DNA from: Halomonas sp.
GTDB taxonomy: Bacteria; Pseudomonadota; Gammaproteobacteria; Pseudomonadales; Halomonadaceae
Direction: 5' to 3'
DNA: 61,132 bases
Assembly (NCBI RefSeq): GCF_041689495.1
Contig: NZ_JBDNGD010000196.1
Coordinates: 1-61,132 of the forward strand
Part shown: piece after piece, positions 37,154 through 60,120 of the stretch
Numbering within the stretch: position 1 is the first letter of the stretch
Layout: each line of letters starts with the position of its first letter
The notes under the pieces: generated by a model
What the model saw: only the letters and a program-made list of their open reading frames with translations
What the model was told of the DNA's origin: nothing
The model's database searches: none
Translations under genes and position numbers: made by a program

Positions 37154-38968
37154 TTAGTAGCGCCGACGGCTATTGCTGCGGTTATGACGGTTCTGGTAGC
37201 GTGTCTGACTGCGCTTCGAGGTTCCCCCTGCGAGTCGAACTACGCCACCGGGGGTCTGAACATCGTCGCCGTAACTACGCCGCTGGGAGTTCTGCACACG
37301 AAGTTCACGTGTGCCTTTCTCGCCTTCGGACTTCTGTGGGCCGGCCTCATCGGAATACGACTCGCCCGAGACGTTCTCGCGTGCATGTGCCTCTGTTGAA
37401 CGATTTGCGTCGAAGTGAGGCGGATATGCACCAAGAACAGTCGCCATTGCGAGGTCGTCTTTTCCATCCTCGGCTTGGTCTTTGCCGCTGAAACGTGGCG
37501 TTTGGTCCTTGTACGACTGCTGCTTCACGATTGCGCACAACTGGTCGAATAAGTCTTCGTCGGGGACCAGATGGACGAGATTCTTGTGGAACCCGTAGTT
37601 CAGGTCGCCCCACATGCGCTCCAACTCCTTTTTGTCCGAGAAGTTGAAGCCCTGCGCTCGATTCCCGAGTCGCTGTTGAATCGACTTCTGGAACCCCTTG
37701 CCGGGACCAGTCATGTCGATGAACACTTTGTCCACGCCCATGTTCTCCGCCAGCCGGTAGACGTAGTTCGCCACCGACTCGGGGTTGGCCGTGTCTTCGG
37801 GGTAGACATCGAGCGCACGCAGGTCAGAACGGTCGAGGAGCGTGTGGAAGCGAAGGTACCGCTCCTCGCCCACGTGCTCGAAGACTGTGATAGCAGTGTC
37901 GTCAGCGCCGTCTGTGCCGATGTCAACGCCCATTGACATCATGCCGCCGCAGCGAGCGTGCGTTGCTGGGTGCCAGTAGTGTTTCTGACCCGTTGGCCGG
38001 CCACCGTTCGATGTGCCGAGTTCGTAGTTCTCGGGCATCGCAGCGCCGCGCCTCATAGCGTCTCCAACCTTCTGTTTCGACAAGAATCGGTATTCGTCGG
38101 AAACAGGCTGGCACAGGTACTCCTGTGCAAAACCTTGCGGGTCTTGCGCCCGTTCGACCTCGACGGCCTGCACGTTCATGTCTGGACGCACAGGGACCGC
38201 ATCTTGGTCGAAAAGCGACTTCGTAGGGTCGATTTCCTCTGGATTCTTGAACGAGGGCTGTTTTATCGAAATAACGCCGTCTTTGCCCTGTTCAGTCCCG
38301 TTCCGGTGGGTTTGGAGGAATGTGTCGTTCGCAACACGCGGAGTGCTCACTTGGAGCATTTGCGCGTCTCCGAGGTTGATGAACGGCATGAAAGCCCGCA
38401 TTGTCGCCTTCTGGTCGTCCAAGAAGGCCATTTCGTCCACGAAAACGACTTTCGCGGAGTCAAAACCACGCGCACCGTCTGGTTCCCCCGTGAAGGCTTT
38501 GATATTCGCCCCATTCGGGAACTCCAGTTCACCGTTGTTGTTCGTCGGTAAATCGGCGTCGAGGTCGGTGAAACCGAGCTTTGATTCGCTCAGAAGGTCC
38601 GCGATGTCCGAAATTCGGGCCTCAGACTGTGCTTTCGTCCGTGAAACGATAGCGTAGTTGGTCCCGCCGTGTGCGAGCGCGTCAATTGCGATACACACGC
38701 AGAAAATGAACGAAACGCCGATACGTCGGCCCTTGTAGACGTTAGTCAGCCGTGAATCGCCGTAGAAGTAGGCGTGCATCAGCTTCGGCTGGTATGGATA
38801 GAACAGCCGAAGCGGCTCTATCTTGTGTGTCTCCTGTGAGCGCACACGGAAGATGTCTTCTGCGATTTTCTCCGGGTGGCCTGTCCACCGTTCGAGAATC
38901 GCTTCAGCATCCTCGATGTCAGCTCCGTGTTCAGCGAAGCGTTCAGCGAGGTCTCCTAATCCATCCAT
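37154..38968 (-). CDS. terL: Terminase large subunit
   Basis: KGRRIGVS Walker A, VFVDE Walker B, STP, FAQEYLC, and GVDIG / DD.A.A RNase H-like nuclease motifs. Confidence 0.93.
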   Translation of the reverse strand: MDGLGDLAERFAEHGADIEDAEAILERWTGHPEKIAEDIFRVRSQETHKIEPLRLFYPYQPKLMHAYFYGDSRLTNVYKGRRIGVSFIFCVCIAIDALAHGGTNYAIVSRTKAQSEARISDIADLLSESKLGFTDLDADLPTNNNGELEFPNGANIKAFTGEPDGARGFDSAKVVFVDEMAFLDDQKATMRAFMPFINLGDAQMLQVSTPRVANDTFLQTHRNGTEQGKDGVISIKQPSFKNPEEIDPTKSLFDQDAVPVRPDMNVQAVEVERAQDPQGFAQEYLCQPVSDEYRFLSKQKVGDAMRRGAAMPENYELGTSNGGRPTGQKHYWHPATHARCGGMMSMGVDIGTDGADDTAITVFEHVGEERYLRFHTLLDRSDLRALDVYPEDTANPESVANYVYRLAENMGVDKVFIDMTGPGKGFQKSIQQRLGNRAQGFNFSDKKELERMWGDLNYGFHKNLVHLVPDEDLFDQLCAIVKQQSYKDQTPRFSGKDQAEDGKDDLAMATVLGAYPPHFDANRSTEAHARENVSGESYSDEAGPQKSEGEKGTRELRVQNSQRRSYGDDVQTPGGVVRLAGGTSKRSQTRYQNRHNRSNSRRRY

Positions 38969-39851: not shown

Positions 39852-40710
39852 CGTCGTCGGCCTCATCGGAGAACTGCTCGGGGTCGTACTCCGTGTCTCC
39901 AGACAGGGCCTCCTGCACCATCTCGCCGACCGCATCGTGAACGTTTGCTTGTGACTCCAGCGCGTCCATCTCACCGCGAGACTTCGGCGTGAGGTTCAGT
40001 TCCTTCATCTGGTCCCGCAAGTCCTTGCGGAGCAGGCGAAGGTCTTCGGTGAGGGTGGATGGAACGGGGAACTCGCCCACGACAACACCATCGTCGTCGT
40101 GAACTTCACGGTACTCAATCTCAGAGCTACCGGCGTTGCCCTCAGCTTCGTTCTCCTCCTTCACGTGCTCGAAGTACTCCTCCGAGCGAAGTGAGCGAAC
40201 CCGGTCGTAGGCGAACTGCTCAAGCAGGTCGTAGCGGGCGGGGTCTTCCTCCTTCTCAGGCCATCCGTAGATGTCCGCCCACGACATCACGTAGTTGAAC
40301 ATCTGTGCGTCGGCTTCGGAGAAATCCTCGGCCAGCCGCCAATCTTCTGCGTACATTCCGTGTGTAATCCTCGCTAATCCGGGTTCGAGCAGGTTTTCGG
40401 GTCTTCCTTCAGAGTGTAATCCTCTGTCGCGGAAGTGATAGCGGCACGTCGGCGTGTAGACGCGCTCGTCGTAGGCGTCGTACTCGTCGTCGTACTTCTC
40501 CGCCCACTCCTCTGGCGTGTACTTCGAGACACGCTGCGTGCAGTAACGCTGCGGGCCGTCGTAGTCATCGGGTTGCTTCCCGATTTTGTCCAAACAGAAC
40601 ATCGTCTCGAACTCGATGCCGTGACGAGAGTGCGTTTTACCGCCTTCGTGCTGTTCGCGTAGCTCGGGGATTTCCTCGGCGGTTATACCCGTGAGTTCTG
40701 TGGACGACAT
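39841..40710 (-). CDS. Putative terminase small subunit
   Basis: First gene of the virion operon; CRYH...THGMYA and LNLTPKSR motifs. Confidence 0.6.
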   Translation of the reverse strand: MSSTELTGITAEEIPELREQHEGGKTHSRHGIEFETMFCLDKIGKQPDDYDGPQRYCTQRVSKYTPEEWAEKYDDEYDAYDERVYTPTCRYHFRDRGLHSEGRPENLLEPGLARITHGMYAEDWRLAEDFSEADAQMFNYVMSWADIYGWPEKEEDPARYDLLEQFAYDRVRSLRSEEYFEHVKEENEAEGNAGSSEIEYREVHDDDGVVVGEFPVPSTLTEDLRLLRKDLRDQMKELNLTPKSRGEMDALESQANVHDAVGEMVQEALSGDTEYDPEQFSDEADDDAT

Positions 40711-40889
40711 TAGTGTTGTAGTTACGCGTCAGTACAGACGCGTGCCGTAATCCGATGAGGCCGCCGCCCCAACGCGCCGTGGGTGCACTGACTGCGCGCT
40801 ACCACTACGCGTTGGAGACTACCGTGTAGGAATCATACTGCTCGTGTGTTACCACCCTCGGTTACTACCTCGGGGGAGTCGGTGTACTC

Positions 40890-40918
40890 CTATGAAAGGT
40901 AGCGGGTATATATAGGGA
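40890..40918 (-). promoter_or_regulatory. Putative late promoter for the terminase/virion operon
   Basis: Near-identical to 22565-22593; contains TATATATA. Confidence 0.65.
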
Positions 40919-41679
40919 TGGGGGGTATTCATATACTCAACCCCGTATCGGCGAAATTCAGGGGGTGAAATCGGGCGCTTCAGGTCGAAAATGCGCCGAT
41001 TTGCCCTCGATTTTCCTCTCGCGCGCGCTCACCGGCAAAATTGCTCGAAAAATCACTCACAGAAATTTTCGGACTTCATTTAGCGCGCATACCGGGGGGT
41101 TTTTGCCCTGAAGTCGTGTATTTCGGGTGTTCACCCCGGTTTCACCAAAAAGGCCGAAAATCAGGCGATTTCGGGGTTCACGTCGCGGTGCAACTTACTA
41201 ACTAACACTGCGCGCGCCCGCCCGCCCGTGTGCCAACCCGCGCGGCATGCGCATAATGCGCGCGGTAGGCGCGCCTTGGCAGCAGGGGGGACCCCCCACC
41301 CTCTGCCCCCCGAAATCGGGGGTTTCAGGGCTTGGTGAAGTCGCCCGGTATGGACATGCCAATATCGGGTTTCGCATGAAGTGGTGAAGTTCGGGGGGAA
41401 TCTTGCCTCTCTGGCCCTTCTCTGGGGCATTTCGCTCTCTCTGGCTGGCCCGCAGTGAAATCGCGATTCTCCACTCTCAAGCCTCAACTCTGGAGAATAC
41501 ACCCGATGAGGCTGCCGCCAGCCTCGCTCCGCTCTCGCGCTACGCCTGTGCGTTTCGCGCGCAAGCCGTGCCCGTGCGCGGTGACTTATGCGACCCTCGC
41601 TACGTGGTCGCCCCGCCGCCGTCTTGCGATTTCAACCATCGACAGATATAAGTCAAAGCGGTGCATCTCTTGAATCGCA

Positions 41680-42144
41680 ATGTCAAACGACATGGCAGCC
41701 GACGACGTGGCACAGGCCGTTAACCAAATCGCAGAATCGCTCGGTGTCTCCCCTTCGCACGTGCGAATTAATGTCGAGCACCCAGTTTTCGGTTCGCACG
41801 AAATTACGCACGAAGGCGTGGCCGAAAAAGGCGCGAAGCCTAAGAAGACTGAAGAGCAAAAAGCCTCGCTCGCGAAGGCAGGCACGAGCGAAAAATCGCA
41901 CGAGGGAAGCTGGTTCGACTTGACCGACGAAGAGCGGGCGAATCTGCGCGAAATGGCAGACGACGAGACGGTGAACAAAATTTGCGAGGGCACGAAAGAG
42001 CACAGGCACGCGAAAGGGCGCTGCCCCGCGAAAAAAGCGAACGGGGAACGCTGCGATTACGGCCGTCAGGGCTTCAACACGACGTTTTGTGTGAAACACG
42101 AGAAGGCCGGAAAGCGCGAAATCCACCCCGACGCGCTTAATTAA
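41680..42144 (+). CDS. Early protein with C-terminal CxxxxxxGxxC...CxxH zinc finger
   Basis: ATATAAGTCA TATA box about 30 nt upstream; RCPAKKANGERC...FCVKH. Confidence 0.65.
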   Translation: MSNDMAADDVAQAVNQIAESLGVSPSHVRINVEHPVFGSHEITHEGVAEKGAKPKKTEEQKASLAKAGTSEKSHEGSWFDLTDEERANLREMADDETVNKICEGTKEHRHAKGRCPAKKANGERCDYGRQGFNTTFCVKHEKAGKREIHPDALN

Positions 42145-42774
42145 GCGCGAAAGCGCGAAAGCGGGCGGGCGGCCTTTTTTGCGAGCCTCGCATAGCGCGC
42201 GCCTTCGCGCGCCATAGCGCGCGCTAAGGGACTTCGCGCGTCGATTGGCGTGCTTCAGCCCCGCCAATCGGGAAATCGCGCGAATCGGGGGCCGTAAGGC
42301 CCCGTAAGGGGCAAATGGCTCGGGGGAAGGCCCCGCGAAAGGCCCCGCGAAGGCTTCGCGTTTCGACGCTTGAAACGGCTTTCGCGGCAGGAATCCGATG
42401 AGGCAGCCGCCGCCGATTCGCTCCATTTCGCTCTCGCGCGAAGGGGGCCAGAAAGGTCGATACCACCCAGTGATACCACCGAGTCAACGGGGTATCTCAA
42501 AACCGCTGAGACTGCCGAAATCGGACGGTAGGAGCCTGCTACCCTCAGAATCCACTTTTCGTCGGATTTCCCTGATTTGAGGATTCCGACAGTAGGAGGC
42601 TGGAGACTGTCGTTTTCAGCTTCTCATCACTCTCAAACTGCTGATTTATACTCCGGTGATACCACTCTGTCAAAACCATGCTACCACACCACATGATTCC
42701 GTCGAAAACCGCAAGAGGGCGGCGACTTTCGGACCATCGGTAGCTTTATTATCCCCCGGTGGGTCTGTTGATAC

Positions 42775-43895
42775 GTCGCTCCCGCGGGCAGCCGGCACGC
42801 TGCCTGACTCGGCTTGGTCCGGCGGGACATCGACATCACCGCACACACGCATTACGCGAAAGGCCCTCTGGGTCGCTGCGGTGAGGTACGCTACGAACGC
42901 TCGCATTAAACGAGCGCAAATGGTAGCCCCCTCGGTTCCGATAAGGGCTTCGCGCGAAGATTAACCGCGCGAAGGCAGTCTCGGGTAAGGGGGGCCAAAG
43001 TGGGTCGCTTGGCGGAACACCAAGCGTCGAATACCTAAATGCGCGAAAGACTTAAAGTGTCTCGCGTTAATTCGCCCCAAAACCCTGTGTATCTTAAGCA
43101 CGCCCCGTCGCGGCCTTCGGGCTATCCCGAAGCGCGAACCCCTTATGGGGAACGCGCGAATGTGGAAGCAGGAGCGCTCCCCCAGCGAAAATCGTGAACC
43201 CTCTTAATGAGGCAGTAGCCGGTCTGGATTCGGAGATAAATTCGCTCCCTAATGGGAGACTATCGGCCCCACCAACGAACGTACTTGAAACCCGCAAAGG
43301 GAGGAGAGGCAGTAATTGGCTGGGTAGCAACCGAGGCAGGCGAGGAACACGCGAAGTTTGACCGCGAAGTGTGTTCTGATGAAGCTACGAAGGCTCGCGT
43401 TCTTGGCGGCCCTCATCGGGTCGAAAAGCAAAGAACGCGTTAACCGACCGACGTGAATCCTGCGCCCCTTACGGGGCAGTGGGGCAAAGGTCACGAGATG
43501 TTACCCAGAGCGAAAGCACTCATTAAGAGTGCGGCCAACCGCCGCGGAAATTGACGCGTCGAAGCCGCTACAATGGCTCCGAGAGGAGAGTCCAGTAATG
43601 ACGGTGGAGCGAGCAACACAGCGTTAAGAAGGCCGGAGGAGTCCTGCTTAAAAGCAGTTAGCCCCGGAGCCAGTTGCGCTTTCAAACGGCGAAACGGCCC
43701 AAACGGCGCGAGAATTATGCGCCAAACCGACCCGGAGAGTCTTCACGACCCACTTAAGATGGCGTGAAGGAGGCAGGGAGTCCGGAGGGCTTACGGCGAT
43801 GATGCTCTGCAACCGACAGGCGATTAACGCCGCCGGTTAGGGAGCGAGGGAAGCCCCTCGTTCCCCCGGCAACGGTTTGCGCTCCCGTTAAAGAG
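42775..43895 (+). ncRNA. Candidate large structured non-coding RNA (boundaries approximate)
   Basis: No halophile-like ORF; TTTATTAT box at 42745; dense series of hairpins. Confidence 0.45.
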
Positions 43896-43907
43896 TGCAA
43901 AGAGACT

Positions 43908-44012
43908 ATGGGATACGACAACCGAATGACACGAAAGGAAGCGAAAGAGGTACAGGAAGCGCTCGAACTGCACGAAGCAGGCGAAACGGTCCCCCACCAC
44001 AGCGAGGCTTAA
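43908..44012 (+). CDS. Small hypothetical protein (34 aa)
   Basis: Read by hand: MGYDNRMTRKEAKEVQEALELHEAG... Confidence 0.4.
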   Translation: MGYDNRMTRKEAKEVQEALELHEAGETVPHHSEA

Positions 44013-44017
44013 ACCCC

Positions 44018-45067
44018 ATGACGACCCGATACAACAAAGATTACAGCGGCGACAACGATAGCGCGGCAAACGACTTCTTTGCGAGCGAAAACGACAACGA
44101 AACCATGAGCCAGACAGCATCCACCGACGACAGCAGCAACGTGCGAAGCATCGTTGCGAACGAAACGAGCGACTTCTACATCGGCATCGGTCACCTGAAG
44201 GCGGTTGCTTCGGCCTTCCTGAAGGCGCACCCGGCAATGGACACGAACTGGAGCGGCCTTTCAGAGCGAGAGATGTCCCCCCAGCTTCGCTACGTGAAGG
44301 CCCTTCACGAAGTGAAGGGTGACCTCGGCCAGCGACAGCGAGAGGCAGAGGGCAACGTCGCCATCGGCTTCGGGAGCGAAGATTGGTACGCGGGAGCCTT
44401 TGGCTCCGAGCTTCCCACCATCGAGACGGAGGCCATCGACGGCGGCATTCTCTCGACCCTCGAAGCGCAGGAAGGGAAGGCAACCGACGACGACGGCGAC
44501 GAGACGTGGCCCGAAGGCTCTACGGCAGAGCTTGGCAACGGCCTGCCCGTTCTCCTGCCCGTTCTCGGCGGCGAAGTGATGCCGTGCTTCGTTAGCAGCG
44601 AAGCGCAGCTTGGGGCTGCTCTGGAGCAGCTTGAAGAGCTTCCCGAAGAGTCGGGCGTTGCCCCGGTCGAAGAGGAAGAGAGCGAAGCACCCGCCGAAGG
44701 CGCGGAAACGGCGAACGCATTCTTCGGCGAAGAGGAGGAGAGCGTAGAGCTTGGCCCCGAAGCCGGCATTACGGAGCTTACGGTCGGCGAAGTTCGCGAC
44801 ATGGTGACCGAGATTCACACGGTCGAAGAGGCTGAAGCCTACATCACCGCCGAGCAGCAGAACGAGAGCTACGAAGGCGGGCGAAAGCAGGCGCTAAAGG
44901 CGCTGCGAAGCCGCCGCAACAAGCTCGCGAAGAACGAGGGTTCGCAGGAAAGCGAAGAGGCTGAAGCAGCCCCAGAGAGCGGCGAGGAGAAGGCGGCGCT
45001 GGTTAACCGCCTCATCGACGGCGGCATGGACGCAGGCGAAGCCATCGAACAGGTTCGCAACCTCTAA
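44018..45067 (+). CDS. Acidic early protein with C-terminal HeH/Rho-N-like helical motif
   Basis: ELTVGEVRDMV...E...GRKQALKAL. Confidence 0.7.
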   Translation: MTTRYNKDYSGDNDSAANDFFASENDNETMSQTASTDDSSNVRSIVANETSDFYIGIGHLKAVASAFLKAHPAMDTNWSGLSEREMSPQLRYVKALHEVKGDLGQRQREAEGNVAIGFGSEDWYAGAFGSELPTIETEAIDGGILSTLEAQEGKATDDDGDETWPEGSTAELGNGLPVLLPVLGGEVMPCFVSSEAQLGAALEQLEELPEESGVAPVEEEESEAPAEGAETANAFFGEEEESVELGPEAGITELTVGEVRDMVTEIHTVEEAEAYITAEQQNESYEGGRKQALKALRSRRNKLAKNEGSQESEEAEAAPESGEEKAALVNRLIDGGMDAGEAIEQVRNL

Positions 45068-52215: not shown

Positions 52216-52298
52216 TCGGCGTAACAGTTAAGGCATCGTGAGTTAATTCTTTGCTGGAGAGGGCACCTCCGCCTCATCGGGTTGGGACTCGATGGGGC

Positions 52299-52340
52299 CG
52301 CACCGTTGGAGCAACCGGGGTTCGACTCCCCGGCGGTGCG
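52299..52340 (+). ncRNA. tRNA-half-like element
   Basis: CGCACCG-TTGGAGCAA-CCGGGG TTCGACT CCCCGG-CGGTGCG. Confidence 0.6.
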
Positions 52341-52366
52341 TTCCCGCGCCGATAGCGGGACACAAC

Positions 52367-59635: not shown

Positions 59636-60120
59636 GAGGGCAGTGATGAAGCGCGTCACCCCGCGCGCCTATTCATCGGCCCTTACCCGAGGTCGGAATC
59701 CCCCACCTCCCCTGACTCCTTCTCAAAGGTCACTACCTTTAAGAGCGGTCGGGTATTCGGATTACGTGAGGGAGCTTCCCTCGATAGGTTGTGTCCCGCC
59801 GTCGTTCCGGTAGGGCTTTTCACGGGGCGGTGGTAAACCGCCCCAATTCACTTGGAGGTAGCCGAGGTACCCGGCTTGGCGAAAGTATTGGAGCAATGAC
59901 TCCACGAAGGGGTTCGAGGCCCCAGCCTCCACTCCCGCCTAAGAGGGGCGGGTTCCTAACTGCAAGTCGCACATGGCAAGGTACTACGCTACCATAGGTC
60001 GTGCCTCATGCACCAGCCCGGCTTACAACCGGGCTGAAAGCTCTCAATGGTTGAAGGTGTGGTTCGATTCCCACCGAGAGCGTCTGGTCGGCGCGTTGTA
60101 GTGTCGCGCCGACAGCCTCA
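59636..60120 (+). ncRNA. Structured non-coding cluster including two tRNA-like elements (59853-59931, 60040-60081)
   Basis: Multiple hairpins, TTCGA T-loops, no credible ORF. Confidence 0.5.

Follow-up and report, generated by a model that had tools for sequence, protein, structure and literature searches.

A probable giant structured RNA, outside the catalogued families, behind an early promoter of Mincapvirus-type haloviruses

The window, by which we mean the whole stretch of 61,132 nt that was analysed, carries on its minus strand (37154-38968) a gene for a terminase large subunit that is 56% identical to those of the Mincapviruses HSTV-2, HRTV-2, HRTV-7, HRTV-11, HCTV-6 and HCTV-15, and 47-49% identical to those of the Haloferacalesviruses HF1/HF2. 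Structural genes run leftward from 40710 and early-type genes rightward from 41680, and both an orthologue of HSTV-2 gp102 and a terminal motif are syntenic with HSTV-2. On the similarity of its terminase and the order of its genes, the window represents a Hafunaviridae-like tailed virus of haloarchaea. The bin that carries the contig (G000, contig C196) has no TBP, and its class sample is drawn from 151 families, therefore the halovirus contig was probably mis-binned, and the bin, in which no SSU rRNA was found, is probably not the virus host and likely bacterial. For the same two reasons, the search of 151 genomes of that class, which returned two weak matches (26-27 bits), is uninformative.

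Positions 41210-41239 match bases 11-42 of the right end of HSTV-2. Read depth peaks at 41128-41441 in one run (X2) and is approximately threefold higher across 40687-42167 in another (X1). Because of this match and the rise in contig depth, the genome end is probably located near 41200, which would place the beginning of the RNA described here approximately 1.6 kb inside that end. Two more non-coding stretches near the genome end, 42145-42740 and 40715-41675, likewise fold well, with z -3.3 for the latter, and palindromic and repeated motifs occur in them. The features of the locus are as follows:

41200-41500 (no strand assigned): putative genome terminus or terminal direct repeat, from the HSTV-2 match and read depth; the right-hand limit is approximate
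42736-42760 (+): predicted archaeal promoter, from sequence, with the TATA box TTTATTAT at 42745-42752
42771-43900 (+): the whole element, a predicted giant structured non-coding RNA of approximately 1130 nt, from full-length colinear homology and covariation
43908-44012 (+): acidic ORF of 34 aa, starting 8 nt past the RNA; opens the coding part of the presumed early transcript
44018-45067 (+): acidic early protein of 349 aa, orthologue of HSTV-2 gp102 (44% identity, E 1e-62)

The TATA box that a sequence-only reading of this DNA had placed at 42745 is indeed present there. By analogy with HF2 promoters, for which section 3.2 of PMC8707807 gives a measured spacing of -26, the RNA is predicted to start at approximately 42771-42775. 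A TATA-like box was found at an equal distance (approximately 25 nt) before the RNA in 20 out of 23 homologous loci, the contigs of the other three starting inside the RNA, and the promoter of the window shares 24 of 26 bases with that of an analogous region in a provirus (L094). The downstream border had been put at 43895; as a terminal pseudoknot had been missed, the element extends to approximately 43900. The gp102 orthologue, which has no Pfam family, no usable Atlas match and no functional clue, and for which a homologue search gave 11 proteins including the query, is the usual, not an obligatory, neighbour on the 3' side. Other genes follow the RNA in L047, L048, L050, L056 and L060, and at least four different proteins occupy the position directly downstream across the family loci. 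The RNA is therefore not tied to one gene.

The homologues of the element were collected in several ways. A blastn search of 50,697 phage records returned 8 matches, exclusively in Mincapviruses, with the cultured HSTV-2 among the family, and these copies are syntenic, upstream of gp102. With nhmmer, the match widened to positions 76-1157 of the 1165-nt query. Scans of IMG/VR contributed two further lineages (3/3 and 3/3 loci homologous), and 18 out of 23 matches from a pattern scan of metagenomes were homologues by profile; in two other pattern scans, 16 of 18 and 1 of 2 matches were not homologues. Nine pattern matches lay in genome contigs with bacterial titles, and the two of them that were checked with model R1 gave no match. 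The resulting 14 full-length sequences, aligned by sequence and not by a structure-aware method, fall into four lineages that are 50-71% identical to one another, and measure 773-1232 nt. Short copies lack entire helical domains, and peripheral helices appear or disappear in blocks.

A fifth lineage was found through terminase similarity alone. Among 23 terminase loci, four had at least 5 kb of upstream sequence: L082 with the RNA, L094 with an analogue, and L081 and L093 with no match. The L082 copy is full-length and colinear with the others at 45-50% identity, and matches the profile at E 6e-35 and the model of the 3' domain at 31.8 bits. The element is thus a conserved family, found by sequence homology in five halovirus lineages.

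A region of this kind could in principle be a set of small ORFs, as some Mincapvirus records in GenBank annotate it. The HCTV-6, HRTV-2 and HRTV-11 records give three or four hypothetical CDS across it, and one frame (window 43039-43197) stays open across 35 codons in lineage A. However, the composition of these frames is basic and non-acidic: the 29 stop-to-stop frames of at least 30 aa in 42771-43901 contain 1-15% D+E, whereas four genuine genes have 18-21%, which agrees with the sequence-only claim that there is no acidic ORF for over 1 kb. Homologues also have in-frame stops, most indels between lineages are not multiples of three (4/25, 10/37 and 9/40 are divisible by three), and the annotations are inconsistent, with one to four differing tiny ORFs on copies that are 90-99.5% identical and disagreement even at 98.7-99.5% identity. 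The chance that the element is a set of small ORFs is, in our judgement, negligible, and several hypothetical proteins in GenBank that overlap the RNA could be corrected.

Nine stems had been listed within the region, and all of them can be read in the sequence. The stem at 43840-43865 is present in all lineages, and those at 43006-43026, 43396-43439 and 43644-43657 recur in a subset of them with compensatory changes. The stems at 42948-42974, 43464-43477 and 43516-43532, on the other hand, are insertions or extensions specific to the window, and those at 43245-43258 and 43115-43132 compete with long-range pairings that are better conserved. The folding z-score, proposed as a check together with homologue collection and covariation, was -3.7 for 42775-43770 (0/20 shuffles equally stable) and -3.9 for 42771-43901. 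It was rejected as proof of an RNA, as a stretch of terminase coding sequence scored -4.9; z was -3.3 for the neighbouring non-coding 40715-41675, -4.2 for the minus strand and -1.6 for the homologue L040. As the coding control folds equally well and a true homologue reaches only -1.6, folding energy alone is not diagnostic. In 120-nt windows across the element, significant folding was seen in patches only. It is therefore by conservation with covariation, and not by folding energy, that the element rises above chance.

The helices and motifs of the element are listed below, with counts of pairs:

42885-43093 (+): LR1 (42885-42891 with 43087-43093), closing the 5' domain; 7/7 pairs in 8/8 other representatives
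43115-43120 (+): invariant CTTCGG segment, pairing locally (43127-43132) or with 43559-43564 (LR6)
43171-43248 (+): LR2 (43171-43176 with 43243-43248; 43177-43180 with 43232-43235), a dispensable domain
43506-43809 (+): central multi-way junction of LR3, LR4 and LR5, from covariation
43506-43511 with 43804-43809 (+): LR3; 5 compensatory pairs; 6/6 in L082, with new compensatory changes and unchanged register
43540-43544 with 43687-43691 (+): LR4; 1 compensatory pair; 4/5 in L082
43696-43700 with 43787-43791 (+): LR5; 3 compensatory pairs; 5/5 in L082
43832-43870 (+): bulged hairpin (43832-43836 with 43866-43870; 43840-43850 with 43855-43865), from covariation
43871-43900 (+): 3'-terminal H-type pseudoknot; S1 43871-43875 with 43885-43889, S2 43877-43884 with 43893-43900

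Across the whole RNA, six helices carried at least three compensatory pairs, compared with a mean of 0.13-0.47 in column- and block-shuffled alignments (maxima 2 and 4, respectively, in 200 shuffles each), and three carried at least five, compared with none in any shuffle; all of this covariation comes from five lineages only. The covarying helices span 70-300 nt and were mostly missed by single-sequence folding, being found by an alignment-wide search.

The 5' domain, which contains the most conserved block of sequence (43026-43120), is closed by LR1, for which three compensatory columns were counted in the extended helix and 5 of 6-7 pairs were kept in L082. In LR2, 5/6 and 2/4 pairs are compensatory over four lineages, and the whole domain is missing in L026 and L058. 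The pairs of LR6 are conserved without two-sided covariation (6/6 in 8/8 other representatives and in L082), and the local partner of the CTTCGG segment is deleted in short lineage-A copies; LR6 is a candidate for a long-range pseudoknot or kissing contact.

In the 3' domain, 95.8% of cells were paired and 15 of 29 pairs had changed on both sides (15 sequences, four lineages). None of 500 shuffles scored as high and slid partners were 36-49% paired, although the test leans towards a favourable result, as the alignment had been adjusted to the model, and kinship among the sequences can by itself carry a score past such a shuffle control. For the two helices of the bulged hairpin, 100% and 94% of cells were paired and 8 of 18 pairs had changed on both sides (15 sequences), with the Mincapvirus rows aligned one column off in the basal helix. 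Helix S2 of the pseudoknot was 100% paired with 6/7 pairs changed on both sides. Helix S1 consists of three invariant pairs and a fourth, covarying pair; lineage A has lost the latter, so that S1 is 3 bp long there, whereas in L082 S1 shows further changes that are in step. The pseudoknot was present in 7/7 family members scanned, in a scan whose shuffle control was inflated by the strong S2 hairpin.

As an out-of-sample case, L082 had 7/9 helices complete, with LR1 and LR4 one pair short and LR2 recovered only after a large shift; this check permitted shifts of up to 3 nt, at which the chance of a full 5- or 6-bp helix is 0.21 or 0.09 each. The 3' helices contained 23 G-U pairs and 3 A-C pairs, which indicates an RNA on the plus strand. 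Two local resemblances were rejected: the motif at 43534-43551, which has some likeness to the 530 loop of small-subunit rRNA, pairs with 43687-43691 with a compensatory change and matches no rRNA model, and a possible hammerhead at CTGATGA near 43376 is not conserved in homologues.

Taken together, the homologues from five lineages, the covariation of long-range helices, the strand-specific G-U pairing, the lack of a conserved ORF and the lack of an Rfam family bear out the earlier proposal of a large, unclassified RNA of an archaeal virus, and we consider it very probable that the element is a real structured RNA. The two alternatives originally offered, a free RNA and a structured early leader, are compatible with each other.

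No catalogued family matched the element, in line with the sequence-only reading, which could not assign one. In the window there was no Rfam match at gathering score, and GOLLD, ROOL and OLE were not found at E<=10 in 40700-44100; the family members L001, L040, L044, L026 and L082 gave no match at E<=0.5. Four weak matches at a permissive threshold (E 1.9-6.3) were judged to be chance. RNase P RNA, SRP RNA, tRNA, tmRNA and rRNA fragments were likewise not detected in the region with Rfam and ARAGORN. From these comparisons, the element is best described as an uncatalogued family of giant structured RNA in archaeal viruses, distinct from GOLLD, ROOL and any Rfam family.

Group I introns and RNase P have a conserved core, variable peripheral domains and A-rich joining segments. 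The halovirus RNA has the same three characters, its A-rich joining segments being invariant, and could therefore be catalytic: a new large ribozyme or the domesticated relic of a self-splicing intron, excising itself or processing other RNAs. Alternative pairings are possible at 43115-43120 and 43243-43248, and an RNA ligase, RtcB, is encoded by hafunaviruses according to PMC8651126. A catalytic role is nevertheless improbable. No Rfam model of an intron (group I or group II), RNase P or a ribozyme matched the window or four other members at E values up to 0.5-10, and no small self-cleaving ribozyme was found inside or at the border of the family RNAs by the same search that found a hammerhead in HRTV-25. 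There is also no interrupted exon: each downstream gene is intact and has a start codon of its own, the RNA starts with ATG in lineage A only, and no virus with an empty site was present among the loci examined.

A role at the DNA end was also considered, in which the element would be a folded replication primer RNA, such as ColE1 RNA II, or a DNA structure controlling injection, replication or packaging. The element lies 0.5-2.3 kb from the terminal repeat in genomes whose end is known, and PMC4284463 has HF2 and HSTV-2 probably replicating via concatemers. However, the strand-specific, G-U-tolerant pairing (23 against 3) and helices with a range of 200-300 nt speak against a DNA structure, a start codon comes after the 3' pseudoknot, and the ORF map of L082 shows that the terminus and the element can be separated by one to four genes. 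A primer would be compatible with these data. Overall, we regard a role at the DNA end as quite improbable.

Comparable regions were found at the left end of other haloviruses. In Haloferacalesvirus, a region of 1.35-1.5 kb with no annotated CDS lies at the equivalent place, where a TATA box is followed by a near-identical start motif; it has 16 helices with at least three compensatory pairs, compared with 1.35 in shuffles. This ORF-free covarying region was seen in 8/8 aligned genomes of the genus (HF2 L028:540-1955; L030-L036), with blastn matches in 41 records. A 3' H-type pseudoknot was detected by the pseudoknot finder in the HF2 and HCTV-7 regions and not in those of VOLN27B, HSTV-4 or L094. 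The HF1/HF2 region differs from the Mincapvirus-type RNA in being longer and in having no sequence or covariance-model homology that could be detected, and no description of it as an RNA was found in the accessible parts of the literature searched.

In HRTV-25 (MZ334521), a hairpin-rich region of approximately 890 nt (z -5.3) is annotated in GenBank as tiny hypothetical ORFs, and an unannotated type II hammerhead stands at its 3' border (L073:6523-6596, minus strand; RF02276, 42.3 bits against a gathering score of 37). The provirus-like contig has a hairpin-rich region of 955 nt (L094:5141-6095, minus strand; z -6.6) behind a promoter nearly identical to that of the window. Comparison of the family with the HF2, HRTV-25 and L094 RNAs gave best nhmmer E values of 0.14-0.95 and no model match at the expected place, with two short domains modelled. 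HF1/HF2, HRTV-25 and L094 seem to have further giant folded RNAs in the equivalent position, for which homology to the family was not detected.

With regard to known systems, the halovirus element resembles GOLLD, ROOL and OLE in being a large (>500 nt) ORF-free RNA with extensive covarying structure. These three are among the largest functionally unexplained RNAs and were described from bacteria and phages. The likeness is closest to GOLLD (RF02032) and ROOL (RF03087), which are also virus-borne, free of ORFs, several hundred to more than 1000 nt long, and built of covarying helices and pseudoknots with a conserved core and variable parts. PMC12286853 describes both as cage-forming RNAs of phages, comparable in size and likewise made of a conserved core plus variable parts. 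They differ in that neither model matches the halovirus RNA, which is archaeal-viral and is located behind an early promoter at the genome end, without a terminator. GOLLD and ROOL are often near tRNA islands in bacterial phages or prophages, whereas the halovirus RNA is 8.3 kb from the nearest ARAGORN call (52247). ARAGORN made two atypical tRNA-like calls in the window, at 52247-52341 (undetermined anticodon) and 59987-60084 (tRNA-Val, 98 nt), neither of which was recovered by Rfam at gathering score.

Two further systems also place a structured RNA before viral genes. The HHphage hammerhead of HF1/HF2 lies just upstream of a hafunavirus gene; it is a small ribozyme before a helicase gene, whereas the element described here is longer than 1 kb and has no hammerhead match. 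As PMC3088659 reports this hammerhead at the position of a transcript 5' end that had been mapped, hafunaviruses evidently process transcripts with RNA structures. The put RNA of phage HK022, a cis-acting antitermination leader of approximately 70 nt that acts on bacterial RNA polymerase, is likewise a promoter-proximal structured RNA before early viral genes; the halovirus element is 10-17 times longer and has long-range helices.

At its downstream border, the RNA was not followed by a T run longer than three in any of the 18 loci examined, thus no T-run terminator was seen, and an acidic ORF begins 8-50 nt 3' of the RNA in all 18. Because of this, the primary transcript probably continues into the early genes, with the RNA as its 5' part. 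The first early operon could therefore have in this RNA a giant cis-acting 5' leader, which stays attached and makes the transcript resistant to termination or nucleases, or efficiently translated. Its position immediately behind the early promoter, the start codon 8-50 nt past the pseudoknot and the long early-arm transcripts of HF2 (F2 = 12.7 kb in Table S4 of PMC8707807) would all fit such a leader.

On the other hand, a length of 0.8-1.2 kb with a conserved long-range core far exceeds what, to our knowledge, is needed by any known cis antiterminator, and the downstream gene is freely exchanged. In addition, the hammerhead of the analogous HRTV-25 RNA would sever the RNA from the mRNA. In PMC8707807, the mRNA of the first HF2 gene was traced back by RT-PCR only to a primer at 1855-1868, within the final 100 nt of the analogous region of 1.4 kb, and Table S4 there lists no HF2 transcript extending further into the ORF-free region, although a stop of the reverse transcriptase would look alike. 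On balance, we find it rather unlikely that the RNA acts as a leader that stays attached.

The explanation we favour, to which we give an even chance, is that the early RNA is cut free and acts in trans, serving as scaffold or decoy in the manner of GOLLD and ROOL. It is favoured because of the conserved core, the dispensable periphery, the size and the free exchange of the downstream gene. The TATA promoter close to the genome end would drive transcription early, a timing suggested by the HF2 programme, in which this genome end is transcribed first. The RNA is predicted to fold into a compact core with the 3' pseudoknot, and could then be released by cleavage from the front of the first early mRNA, by analogy with HRTV-25, which has its hammerhead at the same border. 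The pseudoknot would protect the 3' end, and the contact between 43115-43120 and 43559-43564 could mediate self-assembly. The freed RNA may bind host RNA-binding defence or translation factors, aiding the takeover of the cell. Several points weigh against such a trans-acting RNA: the missing terminator and nearby start codon suit a leader equally, the hammerhead argument comes from an HRTV-25 RNA without demonstrable homology while the family's own 3' border has no recognisable ribozyme, nothing points to a binding partner, and the RNA is not beside a tRNA island, unlike GOLLD and ROOL.

A wider and more speculative possibility, which we would hold to be rather unlikely, is that all hafunaviruses open infection with a giant (0.8-1.5 kb) RNA-only machine transcribed from their first promoters. 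The Mincapvirus-type RNA, that of HF1/HF2 and the hammerhead-released RNA of HRTV-25 would then be fast-diverging forms of one ancestor, self-assembling by loop-loop contact and disarming host defence or capturing the host translation machinery. If this were true, archaeal viruses would have their first class of giant ornate RNA, one that has gone unrecognised in cultured model viruses. The family described here also suggests that RNAs of a comparable kind are encoded in the long empty left ends of HF1/HF2 and HRTV-25, so that an entire virus family may devote 1-2% of its genome to an early RNA. No description of the Mincapvirus-type RNA was found in the literature searched, which covered few subscription papers and included parts of PMC7230728 and PMC9229481. 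As the family is present in cultured viruses, direct tests are possible, and its natural variation is sufficient to fix the core helices, with minimal natural versions of approximately 770 nt.

Two other observations concern repeated sequences. In lineage-A viruses, CRISPR repeats matching RF01337 lie upstream of the RNA as solitary or partial units and a three-repeat mini-array (L026:3051-3080, minus strand; L056:476-630, minus strand; L043:261 and 458, plus strand), and none is present in the window. RNA anti-CRISPRs and inter-virus spacers are both known concepts, and these repeats are candidates for either; the two spacers of the L056 mini-array matched only themselves among the sequences compared.

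The 9-mer CCGATGAGG occurs 29 times in the window, compared with 0.57 expected, at sites from 438 to 60605 on both strands (for example 40752, 41503, 42395, 43411 and 45105), with one copy in a window-specific hairpin of the RNA. Words related to CCGATGAGG are the commonest 9-mers of the genome, and CCGATGAGG itself recurs in Mincapvirus and lineage-A loci. It may be a viral site for DNA binding, methylation or recombination, and codon effects could also play a part.
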